64,000 nt of DNA from Escherichia coli (GTDB lineage: Bacteria; Pseudomonadota; Gammaproteobacteria; Enterobacterales; Enterobacteriaceae), in the NCBI RefSeq assembly GCF_050920415.1, contig NZ_CP169309.1. One strand, written 5' to 3'. Below are positions 1,888 to 50,402 of the stretch, piece by piece (the first letter of the stretch is position 1; every line of letters begins with the position of its first letter). The position numbers and the translations under genes were made by a program. The notes under the pieces are model-generated. The model was given only the letters and a program-made list of their open reading frames with translations, had not been told where the DNA came from and did no database searches.

Positions 1888-2664
1888 ATGCTGATTCTTA
1901 TTTCACCTGCGAAAACGCTTGATTACCAAAGCCCGTTGACCACCACGCGCTATACGCTGCCGGAGCTGTTAGACAACTCCCAGCAGCTGATCCATGAAGC
2001 GCGGAAACTGACGCCTCCGCAGATTAGCACGCTGATGCGCATCAGCGACAAACTGGCGGGCATCAACGCCGCTCGCTTTCATGACTGGCAGCCAGATTTC
2101 ACGCCAGAGAATGCCCGACAGGCGATTCTGGCGTTTAAAGGTGATGTCTACACCGGCTTGCAGGCCGAAACCTTCAGCGAAGACGATTTCGATTTTGCCC
2201 AACAACATTTGCGAATGCTTTCCGGCTTGTATGGCGTACTGCGCCCGCTCGATTTAATGCAGCCTTATCGTCTGGAAATGGGGATCCGTCTTGAGAATGC
2301 CCGAGGGAAAGATCTGTATCAATTCTGGGGAGATATCATCACCAACAAGCTGAACGAGGCGCTCGCAGCACAAGGCGATAATGTGGTGATTAATCTGGCG
2401 TCAGATGAGTATTTTAAATCGGTGAAGCCGAAGAAATTGAATGCCGAGATTATCAAGCCAGTGTTCCTCGATGAGAAGAACGGCAAATTTAAGATAATCA
2501 GCTTCTACGCTAAGAAAGCACGCGGTCTGATGAGTCGTTTCATTATTGAAAATCGGCTGACCAAACCAGAGCAACTGACTGGTTTTAATAGCGAAGGTTA
2601 CTTCTTTGATGAAGCTTCCTCCAGCAACGGCGAACTGGTGTTTAAACGCTACGAGCAGCGTTAA
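1888..2664 (+). CDS. yaaA: peroxide stress resistance protein YaaA (UPF0246/DUF328)
   Basis: 258-aa ORF matching K-12 YaaA; synteny with yaaJ. Confidence 0.95.
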
Positions 2665-9288: not shown

Positions 9289-9314
9289 GGTTGTTACCTC
9301 GTTACCTTTGGTCG

Positions 9315-9350
9315 AAAAAAAAGCCCGCACTGTCAGGTGCGGGCTTTTTT
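9315..9350 (-). terminator. thr operon attenuator (leader terminator)
   Basis: Minus strand reads aaaaaagcccgcacctgacagtgcgggc followed by an 8-T run, immediately downstream of thrL and upstream of thrA. Confidence 0.85.
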
Positions 9351-9368
9351 CTGTGTTTCCTGTACGCG

Positions 9369-9437
<69 letters not shown>

Positions 9438-15281: not shown

Positions 15282-15755
15282 TTATTGCCGCCACGGCATG
15301 ACAGGAACCGCGCTAATCGCGTTTTTCGGCGAACCTTCTACAACTTTGTCGGAGTAAGCCAGATAAGCGAGCGCGTTGCGTTTGGCGTCATAAAAGCGCA
15401 CGACCTGTAACGACTTAAAGACCAGGGACGTGCGTTTTTTGAATACTACCTCGCCCTGAGCTTTGCCGTTTTTAATACGATCCGACAGTTCAATCGGCCC
15501 GACTTGCTGACAAGAAATGGCCGCATCGGAGGTATCTTCTGCCAGGCCCAATCCCCCTTTAATACCGCCGGTTTTCGCCCGGCTCACATAGCAGGTGACA
15601 TTTTTCACATCGGGATCGTCAAAGGCTTCTACGACAATTTTGTGATCAGGACCGATCATTTTAAATACAGTGTCGACCGAACCAATCTCTTCTGCATGAG
15701 CCAACGGCCCCAGCATTATCAGGCTTAAGGACAGAATCAAATGCTTGTATTTCAT
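15282..15755 (-). CDS. creA: periplasmic protein CreA
   Basis: 157-aa ORF with signal peptide, matching K-12 CreA. Confidence 0.9.
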
Positions 15756-28514: not shown

Positions 28515-28778
28515 ATGATCGATCTGAAGAACCAGGAACGGGAGATTATCAATTTAATGTTCAGCCAGGGTATATCCTGGCTAACCGCCGTGCGTATCAG
28601 GCATAAACTATCACTTGCTGAAGTTAGTAAAATGTTGGGTATCTCGATTAATTCTCTAAAACAAATCGAAAAGACGGAACGGCTTAGTTCAAACATCAAA
28701 AACAAAATGGCAGGAATTTATGGTTGTCCGCCAGAGTTGCTGATATGCCCTTACTGGATGACGGCTGAACATAAATGA
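28515..28778 (+). CDS. hypothetical XRE-type HTH protein (87 aa), strain-specific
   Basis: ORF with a good ribosome-binding site (ggaaggaaatATG) directly after lplA; predicted HTH segment LSLAEVSKMLGISINSLKQIEK; lies in an AT-rich segment at the position where K-12 carries yjjJ on the opposite strand. Confidence 0.5.
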   Translation: MIDLKNQEREIINLMFSQGISWLTAVRIRHKLSLAEVSKMLGISINSLKQIEKTERLSSNIKNKMAGIYGCPPELLICPYWMTAEHK

Positions 28779-28787
28779 ATAGTTTCG

Positions 28788-35915: not shown

Positions 35916-36114
35916 TACGGTTCGGCACAGACCTGTAGGCATGATAAGACGCGTCAGCGTCGCATCAGGCATTGTGCGTCGACTGCCGGATGCGGTGTGA
36001 CGCCTTATCCGGCTTACGGTTCGGCACAGACTTGTAGGCATGATAAGACGCGTCAGCGTCGCATCAGGCATTGTGCGTCGACTGCCGGATGCGGTGTGAA
36101 CGCCTTATCCGGCT
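35916..36114. repeat. BIME: tandem duplication of an approximately 99-bp unit, each unit containing two REP-type palindromes
   Basis: Unit tacggttcggcacagacctgtaggcatgataagacgcgtcagcgtcgcatcaggcattgtgcgtcgactgccggatgcggtgtgacgccttatccggct at 35916-36014, repeated at 36015-36114 with 2 differences. Confidence 0.8.
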
Positions 36115-39389: not shown

Positions 39390-40976
39390 TTAATGCTCGC
39401 GAGTCTGGTGGAACTGAACGTCCGGATAACGTTCCTGTGCCAGGCGCAGGTTGACCATGCTGGTAGCGATGTAAGCGAGGTTATCGCCGCCATCAAGCGC
39501 CAGTTGGCTTTCGTTCTTACGCTTGAACTCTTCGAATTTCTTCGCGTCCGCACATTCTACCCAGCGTGCAGTGGCAACGTTGACTGACTCATACACTGCT
39601 TCAACGTTGTATTCGCTCTTCAGGCGCGCTACCACCACATCAAACTGCAGCACACCAACCGCACCAACGATCAGGTCGTTGTTGGAGATCGGACGGAACA
39701 CCTGCACCGCGCCCTCTTCGGAAAGCTGTACCAGCCCTTTGAGCAGCTGTTTTTGCTTCAGCGGATCTTTCAGGCGGATACGACGGAACAGTTCCGGCGC
39801 AAAGTTCGGGATACCGGTGAACTTCATCATCTCACCCTGGGTAAAGGTGTCGCCGATCTGAATAGTGCCGTGGTTGTGCAGACCAAGGATGTCGCCCGGA
39901 TACGCTTCTTCAACATGCGAACGGTCGCCCGCCATAAAGGTCAGCGCGTCGGAGATCACCACATCTTTCGCGGTGCGCACCTGGCGCAGCTTCATACCTT
40001 TTTCATATTTACCAGATACCACACGCATAAACGCCACGCGGTCGCGGTGTTTCGGGTCCATGTTGGCCTGAATTTTAAATACGAAGCCGGTAAATTTATC
40101 TTCGCTCGCCTCTACGATACGGGTATCAGTCTGACGCGGCATCGGCGCAGGTGCCCACTCTACCAGGCCATCCAGCATATGATCGACGCCGAAGTTACCC
40201 AGCGCAGTACCAAAGAACACTGGAGTAATTTCGCCCGCAAGGAACAATTCTTTGTCGAACTCGTTAGACGCGCCTTTCACCAGTTCCAGTTCGTCACGCA
40301 GCTGCTGTGCCAGATCTTCACCAACCGCAGCATCGAGATCCGGGTTATTCAGCCCTTTAACAATACGGACTTCCTGAATGGTGTGACCTTTACCGCTCTG
40401 ATAGAGATAGGTTTCGTCTTTATAAAGGTGGTAAACGCCTTTAAACAGCTTGCCGCAGCCAATCGGCCAGGTGATCGGCGCACAGCCGATTTTCAGCTCG
40501 TTCTCAACTTCATCGAGCAGCTCCATCGGATCGCGGATATCACGGTCAAGTTTGTTCATAAAGGTGAGGATCGGCGTATCGCGCAGACGGGTAACTTCCA
40601 TCAGCTTACGGGTACGATCTTCAACACCTTTTGCGGCGTCGATAACCATCAGGCAGCAGTCCACCGCCGTCAGGGTACGATAGGTATCTTCCGAGAAGTC
40701 TTCGTGCCCGGGGGTGTCGAGCAGGTTAACCAGGCAGTCGTGATACGGAAACTGCATCACAGACGTGGTAATGGAGATCCCACGCTGCTTTTCCATCTCC
40801 ATCCAGTCCGACTTAGCGTGCTGGTTGGAACCACGGCCTTTTACTGTACCGGCAGTCTGAATGGCCTGTCCGAACAGCAGCACCTTCTCGGTGATGGTCG
40901 TTTTACCGGCGTCCGGGTGAGAAATAATTGCAAAGGTTCTTCTTTTCGCTACCTCTGCGGCCAAAAGGCTTGTCAT
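39390..40976 (-). CDS. prfC: peptide chain release factor 3, with a non-K-12 N-terminus
   Basis: 528 aa from the ATG at 40976 ([27 protein letters not shown]...); from residue 9 onward it matches K-12 RF3 as I recall it (K-12 begins MTLSPYLQEVAKRR). Confidence 0.93.
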
Positions 40977-41162
40977 AATTGTTGTCTCTTTGATTATGTA
41001 CAATCATATGTACAAAGAAAAATTCATGCCGCTGATTGTACATTTTGGAGGTATCAGAGCATAGCAGAACATGATCAGTAGGTGTATTTGTAGCCAAAGA
41101 ACATTTGTACATGCAGCAATCTTTACTCTATTGACACTGTTTATTCATACAGTAAAAAATAG

Positions 41163-41182
41163 TGCTGTATACAAATACAGTA
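41163..41182 (+). promoter_or_regulatory. LexA (SOS) box upstream of the dinI-like gene
   Basis: tgCTGTatacaaatACAGta matches the CTGT-N8-ACAG LexA consensus, 14 bp upstream of the dinI-like ATG. Confidence 0.75.
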
Positions 41183-41195
41183 TAGAGGGATTTTT

Positions 41196-41444
41196 ATGCG
41201 TATTGAGATCTGCATAGCCAAAGAGAAAATGACTAAAATGCCAAGCGGTGCTGTTGATGCGTTAAAGGAAGAATTAACTCGGCGCATCAGTAAGCGTTAT
41301 GACGATGTAGAAGTAATCGTAAAAGCCACCAGCAATGACGGGCTTTCTGTTACACGCACCGCAGATAAGGATTCTGCAAAAACATTTGTTCAGGAGACTC
41401 TGAAAGATACTTGGGAGTCTGCTGACGAGTGGTTTGTTCACTAA
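41196..41444 (+). CDS. DinI-family protein (prophage-encoded)
   Basis: 82-aa [14 protein letters not shown]...[15 protein letters not shown] resembling E. coli DinI in size and C-terminal motif; GAGGGA ribosome-binding site. Confidence 0.85.
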
Positions 41445-41694
41445 TAGACACGTAAAATCGGTAACGGCTGGAAATAATTCAATACTCGCACTATCGGAAG
41501 TTCACCAGCCAGCCGCAGCACGTTCTTGCATACGACGTGCCTGCGGTTTCAACTCCCGCCAGCTCCACCACTTTTGATAGGACTGCAACCGGACAGCGGC
41601 AATAAAAACAGCCACTTACGGACACTGACCAGACAGTAAGCGGACTTAAAAAAGACAAAAATATACACGCAAAATGCACGTGCATTTCAAAAAA

Positions 41695-41728
41695 GCCTCT
41701 GATTGTGAAGTCAGAGGCTTTTCTATTT
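41695..41728 (+). terminator. intrinsic terminator on the plus strand
   Basis: gcctctga-ttgtgaag-tcagaggc hairpin followed by ttttctattt. Confidence 0.6.
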
Positions 41729-45177: not shown

Positions 45178-48100
45178 TCAGCTGATACTGATACCTGCTG
45201 TGGATTTCTTCATCACCACAACCAGCAGATCGCTGATACTGGTTGTTGGTGTCCAGTTATTCGCTCCTGATGAAGATACGGTGAATGTCAGTGTCAGCGT
45301 CCCCTGTCCGGCAGGCATATCTATAACTGAGGAAAATACGCCCTGAGCATCCGTCGTGGACTGATTAAAAATCTCCTGACCATTGCGGGTCACTCTTAAC
45401 CGGCAGGTTGAATACCAGTATGACTGTTGGTTATTACTGTTGAAATTCTCATGCTTACCACCACGGAACAACACTGGCGGTATCATGACCTGCCGGTCAA
45501 ATTTCTGATCATCACTGATTCTTACCGTGATGGTGCCACTGGCATAACTGTTCGTGCGGGGGAAAGACTTGCTGACCGTTTTGACAATATCGCCTTCAAT
45601 CTGGTTGGCTGACAGTTTCCCCTTAATCTGACAGTTCTCATTTATCGTGACGTTGTTGAGCGTCCCGGAGTTCGCATTCACGTTACCGCTGATATCGGCA
45701 TTTTTAGCGGTCAGCTTTCCGTCCGGTGTCAGGGAAAATGCAGGAGGATTACCGCCGCTGGTAATGGTGGGAGCCGTCAGATATTTCAGGAACACTTCAT
45801 TCATGAATATCTGATCACCCTGACCAACAAACATCGGTTTTGTGTTGCCATTTGCAGGATTAATCATCGCAATCCTGTCTGCCGCCAGCAGCACCTGACT
45901 CTGCATGCCGTCGGGGGTGTTCTCAATACCGGCACCGATACCCGCAATATAAAGGCGACCATCCTGCATCTGCTGCAGTTTCACGGCCCACATACTGTTC
46001 AGGTTATTACTGGTGTCCGTCTGAACCTTTTGTATCTGCTGGATGGTGGCCTCCTGATCTCCCAGCTTCTGGTCCGTTGTCGTCATGATTTCACTGCTTT
46101 TTTGATCCACATACTGGCGAACCTGCGCTATCTGGCGTGCATTCTCCTCATTACTCTGACTGACCGTCTGCGTGAGTTCGCTGCTGACGTTATCCACTCT
46201 CTGGCTCACCTGTGATATACCCAGTGACAGCTCATCATTTTTTTTCGCAACCAGCTGTGTGAGGCTGTTTTCTGTCTCCCCGATTTTTTGGGTCACTTCA
46301 GCAATATCACTCTCTATCTGCTGATTGATCTCATCCTCCAGTTGCTCAACTTCACTGCGCAATGCCGAGGCATTAATACGATCGTTCAGCTCCTGCCCCA
46401 GCAGGGTGCTGTTTATTTTCCCTTCAAAAAAATTGAGATACACCTCAGCATCATTAACCGGCTGGCCAACAGCTTCCACAAACGCTGATTTACCGACGAT
46501 GTTCACACTGCGGATATAAAAGTAATAATCATGGCCCGGCCTGATATTAATACTGGCAGCTGTCCAGTACATCGCCGTACCAAGATAGCGGGCTGTGGTT
46601 TCAACCTGCCGGATATCCGTAATCTGATTTTCCGAGAACCAGAACTCAAACTGCACCGTCGGGTCATACACCGCAAGACGCGGGACTGCCGTTATCTGAA
46701 AATACCCCGGTATCAGTTCAATCTGTGACGGCGCTGCCGGGGCGTTAATCCGGAATGAGGTGGTGGCGGGTTCCCCCTGCTGGCCATAACTGTTTATCGC
46801 CCGCACCGTCAGGGTGTATTCCCCCAGTGGCAGACCACTGAAACGGTGCGCCGTGTCTGCAGTGATGGCGTTGGTCACCAGACGGCTGTCTTCACCGCTT
46901 CCACGGTTCAGGCGCAGACTGAAGCGCACACCCTTCACCACCCGCGGCGTGTCCCATTTCGCCTGCGCCAGATACTGGCCATCATCCGCGCTCACCTCCA
47001 CCGTGAGGTGCTGCACTGCCGGAGGAGTGACGCTGTTCAGGGAGCCGGACAGCGGCTCAAAGGTGGCCCCGTTATCCACAATGGCTTCTTTTTCCGGTAC
47101 GTGCTGCACCGCCGTGATGGCAAAGGTGCCGTCCGTGTTTTCCCGGATGGCCACACAGCGGAACAGGCGACGTCGAAGGCCGGGAATTTTCAGCCCCCAT
47201 ACCCCGTATGTCGCCACGCCATCAGGCAGGGCGCTGACCTGTATCCGGTCAGGAGCAGGCTGTGCCGTGATGTCCACACTCACCGGCTTACCGCTGCCAT
47301 TAATCAGGTTCACCGTGGCGGTACCGGTCTCCGGAAGCGTCACCTCCCGGTCCAGCGTCAGGGTGAGACTGGCGGCATCGATGTTCAGAATGCGCCCGCC
47401 GGTCAGGGTCCCGGCGTAGTCGTTATCACAGACTTCAATGATGTCACCGGGCGTGTGGCGCAGCCCCTGTGATCCGAGCGTGAAATCCACCGTCTGCGTT
47501 TCCAGCAGTTCGGTCTTTATCACCCACAGTCCGGCACGGTGAGCCTGACCGCGACTGGTACAGCCGAACGCATCCATCTTCAGCAGATTACGTCCGTAGC
47601 GCAGTATGGCTTCCGGGTCTTCCACCAGTTCAGTGGAGGTCTGCCAACCGTTCTGCGGGTCGGTGTAATTCACCTCCACCGCCGTGTGCCGGTCCTTCAG
47701 GGCGCTGAAGCTGTAGCGGAAGCCCACACCGTTATCATCCACCACCACATCGCTGTTGGTGTAGGGCCACACCACATCCGACGGGCGGTCCTGCACGAAC
47801 GTCAGCGTCTGCCCGTTCCATACCGGCATACAGCGCATCGCCGAGCAGAAATCACTGAGCACATCCCACGCCTTACGCTGTTGTGACAGGTACGCATTAA
47901 ACGTCATCCGCGGTTCGGTCCCCCCGAAGCCATCCGGCACCGGCTGGTCGCAGTACTGCGCAATGGCATACAGAGCCCATTTGTCCACGTCTGCGGCCCC
48001 CAGACGTTTCCCCATCCCGTAGCGCGGGTGGGTCAGCATGTCCCACAGGCACCAGGCCGGGTTGTTGCTCCAGGCCGGTTTCATACACCCGTCCCAGATA

Positions 48101-48873
48101 CCGCTGTAAGTACGTTTTTCCGGGTCATAGTTTGACGGCACCTGAATGATGCGACCGCGGATATGGTAGTTCACAGTTATCTGCTGACCGCCAAACTGCT
48201 CCGCATCCACCTGCAGGCCCACAATGGCCGTGTTCGGGTAGCACTGTTCCACATCGATGATTTCGGTGTATGACGACCACAGCGTTCTGTTCTGCAGCTG
48301 GTCCGTGGTGCTGTCAGCCGTCTCCCTGACCATCCGGATGTTAAAGGGGCGCTCAGGCAGATTATTCAGAATCACCGACGTCAGGTACTGCGAGGTGGTC
48401 TTACCGTTAATGGTGACATCCTTTTCCGTCACCCAGCTACCGTTACGCTGCAGCTGAATCAGCAGACGAACAGAAGCCGGATTACGGTCGCCCCTGGAGG
48501 TGGTCTCCACCAGTGACTGTACCCCGAAGGTGACCCGCAGGCGGTCAATGTTCGCGGACGTGATGGTACGCGTCACCGGCTTTGCCTTCGTCACTTCCAC
48601 ACCCAGCGCAGTTTCAGCCCCGGAGGACTCAAAACCTTCCGGCGGGGTCTGCTCCTGCTCCCCGGCGCGCCAGACGGCGGTCACACCGTGTATCACGGGA
48701 TTGCCGTCCGTGTCCGTCAGCGGGGTTTTATTCACCAGGATACTCTGCAGTCCCTTCACCGGGCCTTCTATCGGTCCCTCTCCAATCGCATCAATCACGC
48801 TCATCATCTGCGTGGACTTAAGATTGTCCTTTGCCTCAACTGGCGTGTGCGCCTTGCCGCCACCTTTTCCCAT
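45178..48873 (-). CDS. J: tail tip host-specificity protein J
   Basis: ORF 45178-48909; ATG at 48873 gives [37 protein letters not shown], lambda gpJ-like N-terminus; 1231 aa. Confidence 0.93.
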
Positions 48874-49116
48874 TGCCTCACCCTTTACTGTGATAACTGT
48901 TACGCACAAAAGAACAGGCCCCCCGGGGATGCCTGTATCATAATGACTGAATAAAAATTCTGAGTTTATTCACATTTCCGGAAACTGACGGTTGCAGGAA
49001 TAACTCCACATTTTTACAGTTCTTCAGCCTGATAAAGGCAATTGGTCAAAACTTAACTAATCAAGGTGACTATTCATTTCTCCCGTAATATTCGTGAGTA
49101 TTACGGGAGATTTTTT

Positions 49117-49761
49117 TTATCCTCTGCCGATAACCACCACTTTCCCGTCACCACCTTCATCACGGGTACTGATGTCCTGGGATATCCGTCGGGAACCAAC
49201 CAGCATTTCACCGTATGGCACCGGCACCGGATTACCCTGAGCAATCATATTGTCCAGCGAGGAAAAGTAGGTGTTCTGTCTGCCGTTATCCGTTGTCCGG
49301 TAATCCGGTGTTTTTGCCTTCGGGGCCAGCATCTGTGCCACCCCACCCAGCGCCATTGCAGTCCCCATGGCAAACATAATATTGCTGGCTGCAATACCGA
49401 TACCCGGCATCCAGATAGCTGCCGCAGCCAGCGCAACGCCAAGAACCGCCTGAAACACACCCCCACTTTTGGCTCCTTCAGTCCGGGGTACCAGATGAAT
49501 GACATCCCCCGGGCTCAGTGGCTCATGCAGTCGGGTCGATATCTGGTCCGGCGCAGTATCCTCACCGGCAATACGTACCCGGTACCAGCCTTCGGTCATC
49601 TGACGGCGGAATCCCGGCAGCTGCAGAGACAGCGCCCGGATGGCTTCCGCTGCCGTGTTCACATACAGGCTGAGGCGGCGGCCAAATCGTTGTAAATCCC
49701 CGTGAAGGCAGATGCGGACCAGTGGCGGTGATGCCAGACAGAATGCGTTCGTCGTTGCCAT
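49117..49761 (-). CDS. I: tail assembly protein I
   Basis: 214-aa ORF; ...ICLHGDLQRFGRR... and ...NTYFSSLDNM..QGN..PV.YGEM.VGSR resemble lambda gpI. Confidence 0.88.
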   Translation of the reverse strand: MATTNAFCLASPPLVRICLHGDLQRFGRRLSLYVNTAAEAIRALSLQLPGFRRQMTEGWYRVRIAGEDTAPDQISTRLHEPLSPGDVIHLVPRTEGAKSGGVFQAVLGVALAAAAIWMPGIGIAASNIMFAMGTAMALGGVAQMLAPKAKTPDYRTTDNGRQNTYFSSLDNMIAQGNPVPVPYGEMLVGSRRISQDISTRDEGGDGKVVVIGRG

Positions 49762-50402
49762 TTTTCAGAATACCTCTCCCGTTTACTCAGTTGTTCAGGT
49801 ATATGGTGAAGCAGTTCACCGTTACCGCAGTAAATGGCGGCGTGATTGGCCACCGATGCGCCAAAGCAGCACAGCAGGATATCGCCCGGCTGTGCAGAGG
49901 GCAGGGGCACCCGGTAAAAGCCCGTGGCCTCCATATTGTCCAGGTACAGGTTCTGGCCGTTGCGCCACCACTCATCCTCGCGCGCAAAATCCGGCAGCGT
50001 TATCCCTGCCAGATGGTATGCATCCCGGAACAGGGTGTAACAGTCCGTCACACCATGTTCAAAGCGCCGTCCGGTCAGGTGCGGCACACAGCGGAACTTG
50101 TGAATCGCCCCCCGGCAGACCAGCCACCAGGACAGGGCACTTTTCACCTGCAGCCGCCGGTCCGCCTCGCTCAGCCAGGGCAGACCACCGGGATGACTGT
50201 GGACCAGTGCCACAATCTCCCCCTGCATCTCTGCCCGCAGCCAGTCCTCCGGTGCAATACGAAAATATGCCTCAGGCTCTGCGGAGGTATTCACGCAGGG
50301 AAGATACCTGTCTCCCTCCGGCGTTCTCACCACGAAGCCGCACGACTCCGCAGGCGCACACCGCCGGGCATGCGCCAGAATCGCTGATTCAGTCTGTGTC
50401 AT
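49659..50402 (-). CDS. K: tail assembly protein K (Mov34/NlpC-P60-type)
   Basis: ORF 49659-50663 contains a K-like protein from the ATG at 50402 (MTQTESAILAHARRCAPAESCGF...HSHPGG...); 247 aa; overlaps the start of I by about 100 nt. Confidence 0.8.
   Translation of the reverse strand: MTQTESAILAHARRCAPAESCGFVVRTPEGDRYLPCVNTSAEPEAYFRIAPEDWLRAEMQGEIVALVHSHPGGLPWLSEADRRLQVKSALSWWLVCRGAIHKFRCVPHLTGRRFEHGVTDCYTLFRDAYHLAGITLPDFAREDEWWRNGQNLYLDNMEATGFYRVPLPSAQPGDILLCCFGASVANHAAIYCGNGELLHHIPEQLSKRERYSEKWQRRTHSVWHHRHWSASAFTGIYNDLAAASACM

Follow-up and report, generated by a model that had tools for sequence, protein, structure and literature searches.

The stretch of DNA analysed here, 64,000 nt of an Escherichia coli chromosome (contig NZ_CP169309.1; hereafter the window), carries a prophage with tail genes inserted beside prfC. 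The tail genes I and J of this prophage both lie on the minus strand. Since the J start codon occupies 48873-48871 and the I stop codon 49119-49117, the two genes are separated by a non-coding gap of 243 nt (48874-49116), which is unannotated, between "tail assembly protein" and "gpJ", in every E. coli record that we inspected. We find that the I-proximal two-thirds of this gap (about 48954-49118, plus strand) is very probably a self-contained inserted gene, or "moron", for a small RNA (sRNA) of the PasB/EcOnc22-24 family, antisense to the tail operon. The rest, nearest to J (48874-48953), is sequence of the ancestral junction; it holds the ribosome-binding site of J and a coding-strand hairpin that resembles a terminator. 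The features of the locus are as follows.

45178-48873, minus strand: tail tip and host-specificity gene J (ATG at 48873, MGKGGGK...); gpJ in near-identical E. coli records
48876-48884, minus strand: J ribosome-binding site AGGGTGAGG, read from the sequence and kept in the alignments
48903-48936, minus strand: terminator-like hairpin ACAGGC...GCCTGT (48936-48914) followed by a T-rich tract (48913-48903); its distance from the J ribosome-binding site downstream is about 30 nt
48959-48974, plus strand: CRP-like palindrome TCTGA-GTTTAT-TCACA, centre 48966.5, about 60 nt upstream of the predicted sRNA start
48992-49020, plus strand: candidate sigma-70 promoter, read from the sequence, with -35 TTGCAG (48992-48997), a 17-nt spacer and -10 TACAGT (49015-49020)
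49026-49118, plus strand: predicted sRNA of about 92 nt, PasB/EcOnc22 family, class 2 seed; 5' end aligned to the published PasB 5' end
49065-49078, plus strand: putative seed GGUGACUAUUCAUU, the single-stranded stretch directly 5' of the terminator
49079-49118, plus strand: rho-independent terminator with a 14-bp stem, a 4-nt loop and U8, called by the terminator scan
49117-49665, minus strand: tail assembly gene I (TAA at 49119-49117), whose 182-aa product matches I homologues over their full length

An sRNA-like unit with a strong terminator

A preliminary description of the window, made from its letters, had noted a gap of this length and, at 49079-49118, a plus-strand hairpin followed by eight Ts that overlaps the I stop codon. 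Both observations hold. The hairpin (49079-49110) forms all 14 of its pairs perfectly around a 4-nt loop and runs directly into T8 (49111-49118), the last 2 nt of which fall within the I stop codon. It folds at -19.6 kcal/mol (z = -7.0), and none of 200 shuffled sequences folded equally well. The predicted sRNA as a whole has z = -4.8. Within it, the putative seed is unpaired in the minimum-free-energy fold save for a weak 5' helix; the seed of PasB has been placed at the equivalent position before its terminator (Zhu, Shabalina and Storz 2026, bioRxiv 10.64898/2026.05.13.724894).

Rfam gave no family match in any I-J gap, either at permissive thresholds (48000-50000 and 13 related loci) or at gathering thresholds (the whole window), and a mir-2041 match (E 0.21) was merely the hairpin. 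A full-text literature search with the seed and terminator sequences returned no relevant paper. We also searched the window itself for targets of the seed. The best complement, 11 nt at 28773-28783, lies away from gene starts, with about 1.4 such matches expected by chance, and was rejected.

A shared plan in related prophages

To place the gap among its relatives, we collected 80 related loci from IMG/VR via the I protein, cut out their I-J gaps and aligned the alleles of about 240 nt, the commonest form, in PasB orientation. Related loci are referred to by L-numbers (L002 is GB089, L004 is E2348/69 and L086 is Sakai). The window gap is homologous to the related gaps over its whole length, and these gaps share one plan. 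From the J side, a hairpin ACAGGCAYCC-loop-GGRTGCCTGT is followed by a strongly conserved block, GAATAAAAWTTCTGA-N6-TCACATTT, then by a poorly conserved -35 region and a -10 element TAnnnT (TACAGT, TACTTT or TAGTGT). The RNA body lies on the I side; its 5' part is A-rich, the stretch before its terminator is conserved, and it ends in CCCGnnn...nnnCGGG and a T-run by the I stop. All of these elements are found in the window. The simple spacer in relatives that would have refuted the preliminary description was not seen: the junctions of related prophages hold a promoter block that is conserved and a terminator whose stem has changed in a compensatory way.

The J-proximal 130 nt of the gap are widespread. 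By BLAST, at about 85% identity, they are present in 629 of 5,426 complete E. coli genomes and in many Stx1a-, Stx2a- and Stx2c-converting phages (Stx, Shiga toxin). The full gap at 98% (98-99%) identity is found in only 15 of those genomes.

Lambda provides the comparison that identifies the insertion. Its I and J genes, which the preliminary description had taken to be adjacent, are in fact 60 nt apart (15445-15504), and this short gap holds just a hairpin of its own and a ribosome-binding site. There is no sRNA module, and our covariance model of the family (R1, below) has no match in lambda. The additional ~185 nt in the window are therefore an insertion. Consistent with a moron, the inserted module is absent at the lambda junction and has its own predicted promoter and a strong terminator. 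It resembles the phage morons sodC (in its prophage form), lom and bor (for the concept, Juhala et al. 2000, as cited in PMC4104026) in separating genes that are closer in a relative (60 nt in lambda versus 243 nt here), in having promoter-like and terminator elements of its own, and in having homologues that are expressed in the lysogen. Unlike those morons, its cargo is a non-coding RNA and not a protein, and it is oriented against the operon. The same I-J junction carries a sodC-like gene in other prophages.

Membership of the PasB/EcOnc22-24 family

Two sets of experimentally detected sRNAs come from this junction in other strains. PasB of enteropathogenic E. coli (EPEC) O127:H6 E2348/69 is an 83-nt, northern-validated, Hfq-dependent RNA (Pearl Mizrahi et al. 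2021, PMC8550237 Table S6). It is encoded at NC_011601.1 1466343-1466261 on the minus strand, in prophage PP6, and is drawn "(> <) >" between E2348C_1436 and E2348C_1437 (PMC8550237). From the region that we fetched, these two genes are tail assembly I, ending at 1466255, and gpJ, starting at 1466496. PasB therefore sits inside an I-J gap of 240 nt, in antisense orientation to the tail genes, with 6 nt between the end of its U7 run and the I stop. The published northern probe (PMC8550237) matches the hairpin at that site. In one comparison of Table S2, probably hfq deletion versus wild type, PasB RNA is down by log2 6.8 (PMC8550237). It has 37 partners by RIL-seq (sequencing of interacting RNAs after their ligation), mostly in coding sequences or 5' untranslated regions (UTRs), and is mainly the second RNA in chimeras (PMC8550237).

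The second set is EcOnc22, EcOnc23 and EcOnc24 of enterohaemorrhagic E. coli (EHEC) O157:H7 Sakai, which were detected as Hfq peaks by CRAC (cross-linking followed by cDNA analysis), run at about 85 nt on northern blots and are destabilised in an hfq deletion (Tree et al. 2014, PMC4104026 Table S2). The older coordinates of that paper were calibrated by AgvB, for which Rfam gives 1941920-1941981 in NC_002695.2 and the paper 1941783-1941835, an offset of +137 to +146. With this offset the EcOnc22 peak falls at about 2902851-2902920, on a predicted sRNA at 2902852-2902926 (L086 1651-1727; also L087 and L088). EcOnc22, EcOnc23 and EcOnc24 map to the I-J gaps of the Sakai prophages Sp15, Sp14 and Sp11, respectively, on the antisense strand. 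With the AgvB-calibrated offset as its basis, we conclude that EcOnc22-24 are class 1 members of the family that occupies the PasB slot. This link is absent from PMC8550237, from a 2021 review (PMC7873438) and from the 2026 preprint (Zhu et al.).

We then asked how the window copy relates to these RNAs. Covariance model R1 was built from 27 alleles with the window type (class 2) left out, to avoid circularity. Its top match in the 64-kb window is at 49038-49115 on the plus strand, over the full model length, with 30.7 bits and E ~3e-4; the only other match in the window is the terminator of the thr attenuator (E 0.4). Members of the model or their close relatives score 57-88 bits, and other class 2 units 27-31 bits.

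The window RNA and PasB share the I-J slot, the antisense orientation, a terminator abutting the I stop, and homologous TCTGA-N6-TCACA and TAnnnT elements. Their layout is also the same: an A-rich 5' part, a seed, a CCCG...CGGG terminator and a U-tail. They differ in that the window RNA is about 10 nt longer, with a terminator stem of 14 bp versus 7 bp and two compensatory changes, and in their seeds, GGUGACUAUUC in the window and GUUAAUCUUC in PasB. EcOnc22-24 likewise represent the same module, in I-J gaps and on the antisense strand, but are class 1 alleles (TGCCTGAAAAATAACTCCATAACGTTAATCTTCAT...). Global identity of the window RNA is 59% to either PasB or the Sakai allele. BLAST with PasB or EcOnc22 gave no match at the window locus at word sizes 28, 11 and 7, and the survey criterion of Zhu et al. 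(blastn word size 28, at least 75% coverage) would miss the window copy, which also lacks identity to the PasB seed. The missing BLAST match and the distinct seed place it in a separate seed class, not among PasB variants in the sense of Zhu et al.

Taken by position, terminator, RNA homology and promoter block, each of which agrees, the window copy is a predicted member of the PasB/EcOnc22-24 family. The suggestion in the preliminary description that the gap could be a small-RNA locus is supported. The plus-strand hairpin with its T8 is the terminator of an sRNA gene of this family, and discrete Hfq-dependent transcripts of about 83-85 nt come from the I-J slot in two other strains (PMC8550237 Table S6; PMC4104026 Table S2). 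The type of locus is already known, from PasB (2021 and 2026) and EcOnc22-24 (2014), and is therefore not new; the window copy is an added member.

Other Hfq-dependent prophage sRNAs, namely AgvB, AsxR, PasA, PasC, PasD and STnc100, also occupy conserved lambdoid slots and combine variable 5' or seed parts with conserved 3' ends. However, their slot is downstream of PR' by the lysis genes, not in the tail operon, and their sequences are unrelated. AgvB and AsxR, as RNAs of the PR' moron site with unrelated sequence, were rejected as the identity of the gap.

A conserved promoter block with a CRP-like palindrome

Upstream of the predicted RNA, the palindrome agrees with the CRP core TGTGA-N6-TCACA at 9 of 10 positions, and the flanking AAA and TTT fit too. 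Its half-sites, TCTGA and TCACA, are invariant in 54 of 56 distinct units, the remaining two having TATGA, and the 6-nt spacer is variable. The spacing is also constant: in 47 of the 56 units, including the window, the palindrome is centred 59.5 nt upstream of the alignment column that corresponds to the 5' end published for PasB.

Downstream of the palindrome, the T, the A and the final T of the -10 element are conserved in 19 of 19 cluster representatives. The last base of TAnnnT lies 6 nt upstream of the PasB 5' end in the alignment, and this spacing and that of the palindrome hold in the window and in 47 to 54 of the 56 distinct units. Transcription therefore probably begins 1-2 nt beyond that 5' end, and we predict an sRNA start at about 49026-49028. 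Such a shift would put the palindrome at about -60.5 to -61.5, a class I CRP geometry. In class I promoters of the lac type, the CRP site is centred near -61.5 (or -72.5, -82.5, -92.5) and the -35 element is poor. The palindrome is a candidate CRP-binding site.

PasB is higher in overnight static lysogeny broth (LB) than in exponential Eagle's medium as modified by Dulbecco (DMEM), the reverse of the CRP-repressed Spf (PMC8550237). This condition dependence fits CRP activation.

Seed classes and tandem arrays

The stretch directly 5' of the terminator divides the family into at least three seed classes.

Class 1: PasB and EcOnc22-24; pre-terminator sequence AACUCCUUAACGUUAAUCUUCAU
Class 2: window, L002, L013, L028.u1 and unit 2 of the four-unit array (e.g. 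L005.u2); pre-terminator sequence CCUUAAGGUGACUAUUCGUUU
Class 3: unit 3 of the four-unit array; pre-terminator sequence AACGCCAACAGGUUAGUCAACAUCG

The putative seed of the window is conserved within class 2 (window, L002, L013, L005.u2 and L028.u1), and class 1 has GUUAAUCUUCAU instead. Compared with class 1 alleles, the core terminator stem carries two compensatory pairs (CG to UA and GC to AU), and the class 2 terminator is longer (CUCCCGU...ACGGGAG). Class 2 occurs in 82 of the 5,426 complete genomes, 15 of them with the window form and 67 with a class 2 sequence as unit 2 of the array. In the array genomes this unit is 79-82% identical to the window, with seed and terminator arms kept. We found no published description of the window seed class. 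The reverse complement of the class 1 seed and terminator arm reads GGGAG-N6-AUGAAGAU, resembling a translation initiation region, and the window counterpart is GGGAGAAAUGAAUAGUCACC. The class 1 sequence suggests that the family may target ribosome-binding regions.

Some I-J gaps are much longer, at 420-945 nt, and hold tandem arrays of two to four diverged PasB-like units with different seed classes, each with its own TCTGA-N6-TCACA block and terminator. The arrays were shown by motif positions and the covariance model; Tandem Repeats Finder returned nothing on the four-unit array because its units are too diverged. An example is L007 2050-2800, with minus-strand units at 2050-2128, 2270-2349, 2494-2572 and 2723-2800. 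Four units are also found in L005, L008-L010, L012, L016, L019 and L059, three in L038, and two in L018, L021, L022, L028, L034, L040, L044 and L070. The four-unit array (at least 80% query coverage) is present, unannotated, in 67 of the 5,426 genomes, of serotypes O91:H21, O104:H21, O113:H21 and others, with about 99-100% identity among the records listed. In the 2026 survey of Pas RNAs, no pasB copies lie closer than 28 kb (Zhu et al., bioRxiv 10.64898/2026.05.13.724894).

Further gap types were observed. In L053 (2086-2936; also L061, L078-L082 and L084), an 851-nt gap carries an open reading frame (ORF) for a sodC-like Cu,Zn superoxide dismutase antisense to the tail genes. Downstream of this ORF, about 100 nt past the stop, comes a PasB-like sRNA (2090-2173, minus strand, 57 bits), and the CRP-like block is absent; this sRNA may double as the 3' UTR and terminator of sodC. 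The gap of L014 (2053-3202, 1150 nt) holds a 185-aa ORF without known function on the tail-gene strand and a short duplicated 5' fragment of J. In L026, L027, L031, L043, L045, L046 and L056 the gaps are about 340 nt, with a unit nearly identical to PasB, no ACAGGC sense hairpin, and about 100 nt of unrelated sequence before J.

The coding-strand hairpin before J

In most alleles, a GC-rich stem of 9-10 bp followed by TGTTTTT lies about 30-45 nt before the J start on the coding strand, and in Sakai and E2348/69 the scan calls it a terminator. Covariation is seen at one pair of the stem, where C:G changes to T:A and T:G is the intermediate. Each gap holds one such hairpin, arrays included. In the window it is present at 48936-48914 and is followed by TCTTTTGTG. 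The preliminary description had put a GC-rich hairpin with a U-rich tract here; the element itself is confirmed, although its stem is interrupted, its z score of -1.0 is not above chance and the terminator scan of the window did not call it.

Lambda also has a GC-rich coding-strand stem with a T-tract directly upstream of the J ribosome-binding site, but its sequence, CCGCC-TGCG-GGCGG plus TTTTGTCATTT, is unrelated and no sRNA module adjoins it. To our knowledge no function has been assigned to this lambda hairpin. L014 has a hairpin of the lambda type (CGCC-TTCG-GGCG plus TTTTGTC). The analogous hairpins in lambda and L014 indicate that the hairpin is an ancestral part of the junction, and that the sRNA module was inserted between it and the I stop. 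The coding-strand hairpin probably stops RNA polymerase that lacks Q modification before it enters J.

In L030, L005, L054, L062 and similar loci with a GTG-start J, a 7-nt unit, TCAGACA, is repeated two to four times within the 20-45 nt upstream of J, between the sense hairpin and the J ribosome-binding site. Its copy number varies in near-identical alleles.

Elsewhere, the window covers the origin-of-numbering region of the E. coli chromosome. Its other features, at 9314-9433 (minus strand), 35938-36114 (minus strand) and about 40000-41700, comprise the thr operon leader (Rfam, 121 bits), two elements of the naRNA4/repetitive extragenic palindromic (REP) type, and prfC.

Proposed working and alternatives

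The anatomy of the gap, its homology in position and sequence, and the expression and Hfq dependence of its homologues in other strains are observed, and our proposal starts from them. By analogy with PasB and EcOnc22, the prophage would produce the window RNA while the lysogen is uninduced. Transcription would probably be favoured at high cAMP-CRP, that is, without glucose or in stationary phase. The RNA would end at the 14-bp/U8 terminator, and Hfq would bind and stabilise it through the U-tail. It would then pair in trans with mRNAs through the seed at 49065-49078; since this seed differs from that of PasB, the target set should differ too. As its homologues are, the window allele may be expressed as an Hfq-stabilised RNA of about 80-90 nt with trans partners.

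Several observations weigh against this proposal. The E-value of the R1 match is modest and roughly calibrated. A consensus promoter scan of the window found no promoter, as the proposed one matches only 8 of 12 consensus positions. A CRP core with one mismatch is expected about twice by chance in 64 kb, so that the motif in the window by itself is not significant, and we keep the CRP proposal on its conservation among alleles only. E2348/69 has an 11/12 sigma-70 promoter, TTCACA-16-TATAAT (L004 1866-1893, minus strand), 15 nt further upstream of the PasB 5' end, and in the window this TATAAT box reads AATAAC, with the final T lost. Both the start site and the CRP geometry that follows from it are uncertain. 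The 5' end as published is an approximation, the alternative promoter found 15 nt upstream in some alleles would set the CRP centre near -44.5, and PasB may have a true start further upstream than published, or two starts. The condition dependence of PasB is equally compatible with control by RpoS or by growth phase. In the nearest relatives of the window gap (98%; L002 3001-3245, which is GB089, and L013) the half-site is TATGA and not TCTGA, and gpJ of GB089 is annotated as a truncated pseudogene; with a mutated half-site and a J pseudogene, the window-type lineage may be decaying. The coding-strand hairpin of the window is weaker than that of its relatives. For the window allele we infer expression, start site, CRP control, action in trans and targets, as well as the function of the sense hairpin.

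Four other explanations were weighed. The gap might be chiefly a point of attenuation or termination, with the coding-strand hairpin and T-tract restricting J to Q-antiterminated polymerase and the rest serving as spacer. A terminator-like hairpin does stand 30-45 nt upstream of J in most alleles, it recurs in lambda and L014 with unrelated sequence, and one pair of its stem covaries. Yet it explains about 35 of the 243 nt and accounts neither for the promoter block nor for the plus-strand terminator and the detected antisense transcripts. In the window it is degraded, and the L026-type and L053-type gap classes do without it. Attenuation is a reasonable candidate for a side-function of the hairpin before J, but as an account of the whole gap we regard it as doubtful. 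Rather less probable is a role chiefly in cis, in which the RNA, pairing perfectly with the I-J region of the late mRNA, would tune I and J of its own or a superinfecting phage; trans targets would be compatible with it. Because of this perfect complementarity to the intercistronic mRNA, cleavage by RNase III or RNase E, or blocked ribosome coupling, would be possible. In every case the gene runs antisense to the tail operon and adjoins the I stop, and the sRNA half is far more diverged (59%) than the flanks (~85%), as would fit allele-specific interference. However, PasB behaves as a typical trans-acting Hfq sRNA, with its 37 partners and its second place in chimeras, and uninduced lysogens, which lack the late mRNA, express it. 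The RNA also stays clear of the J ribosome-binding site and overlaps I by just 2 nt.

We consider it improbable that the module represents a PasB-like gene in decay, a silent relic with neither transcription nor function. The loss of the TATAAT-like box, the mutated half-site and J pseudogene of the nearest relatives, and the rarity of the allele (window form in 15 of 5,426 genomes) all point that way, but the terminator is perfect (14/14 pairs plus U8), the window keeps both the palindrome and the -10 TAnnnT intact, and the seed class persists as array unit 2 in 67 further genomes, with seed and terminator arms conserved. That the gap encodes a small protein is scarcely credible. The preliminary description had reported no ORF longer than 13 codons; this does not hold once GTG and TTG starts are allowed, which give ORFs of 13-23 codons (such as one of 23 aa at 48938-49009 on the minus strand), and the class 1 coding strand reads GGGAG-N6-ATGAAGATTAA ('MKINV...'). 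Among alleles, however, neither the frame nor the length (12-41 aa) of any ORF is kept, the 'MKINV' ORF of the window has only 6 codons, and the sRNA seed and the arm of the terminator, on the opposite strand, account for the nucleotides that are conserved; we rejected this candidate. We retain an inserted sRNA gene of the PasB/EcOnc22-24 family as the best account of the I-proximal two-thirds of the gap.

Implications

An unannotated gap in a tail operon becomes a concrete candidate for an sRNA gene. The analysis also links three sets of data that stand apart in the literature cited here, namely PasB (EPEC), EcOnc22-24 (EHEC) and a diverged seed class missed by surveys based on BLAST. Relative to that literature, four observations are new: that EcOnc22-24 and PasB are equivalent, that a CRP-like block is conserved, that seed classes exist and that units form tandem arrays. 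Of these, the equivalence and the CRP-like block alone bear on the window.

A broader reading is possible, and we put it forward tentatively. The I-J junction of lambdoid prophages may serve as a slot dedicated to cassettes of an sRNA family that is diversifying. Its units would share one promoter (possibly wired to CRP), belong to three or more seed classes and, in some strains, be stacked in arrays of as many as four; the window copy would then be an unrecognised class 2 paralogue with its own regulon. If so, such diversification could stem from selection for new targets in the host, or from allele-specific interference, by antisense pairing, with late mRNA of rival phages. If the palindrome is a real CRP site, a prophage sRNA family would be tied to host carbon status. 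For annotation, the I-J gap of about 240 nt in lambdoid prophages should be marked as an sRNA gene. Different seed classes and arrays would mean that lineages of Shiga toxin-producing E. coli differ in an Hfq-dependent regulatory layer that is invisible to current annotation.

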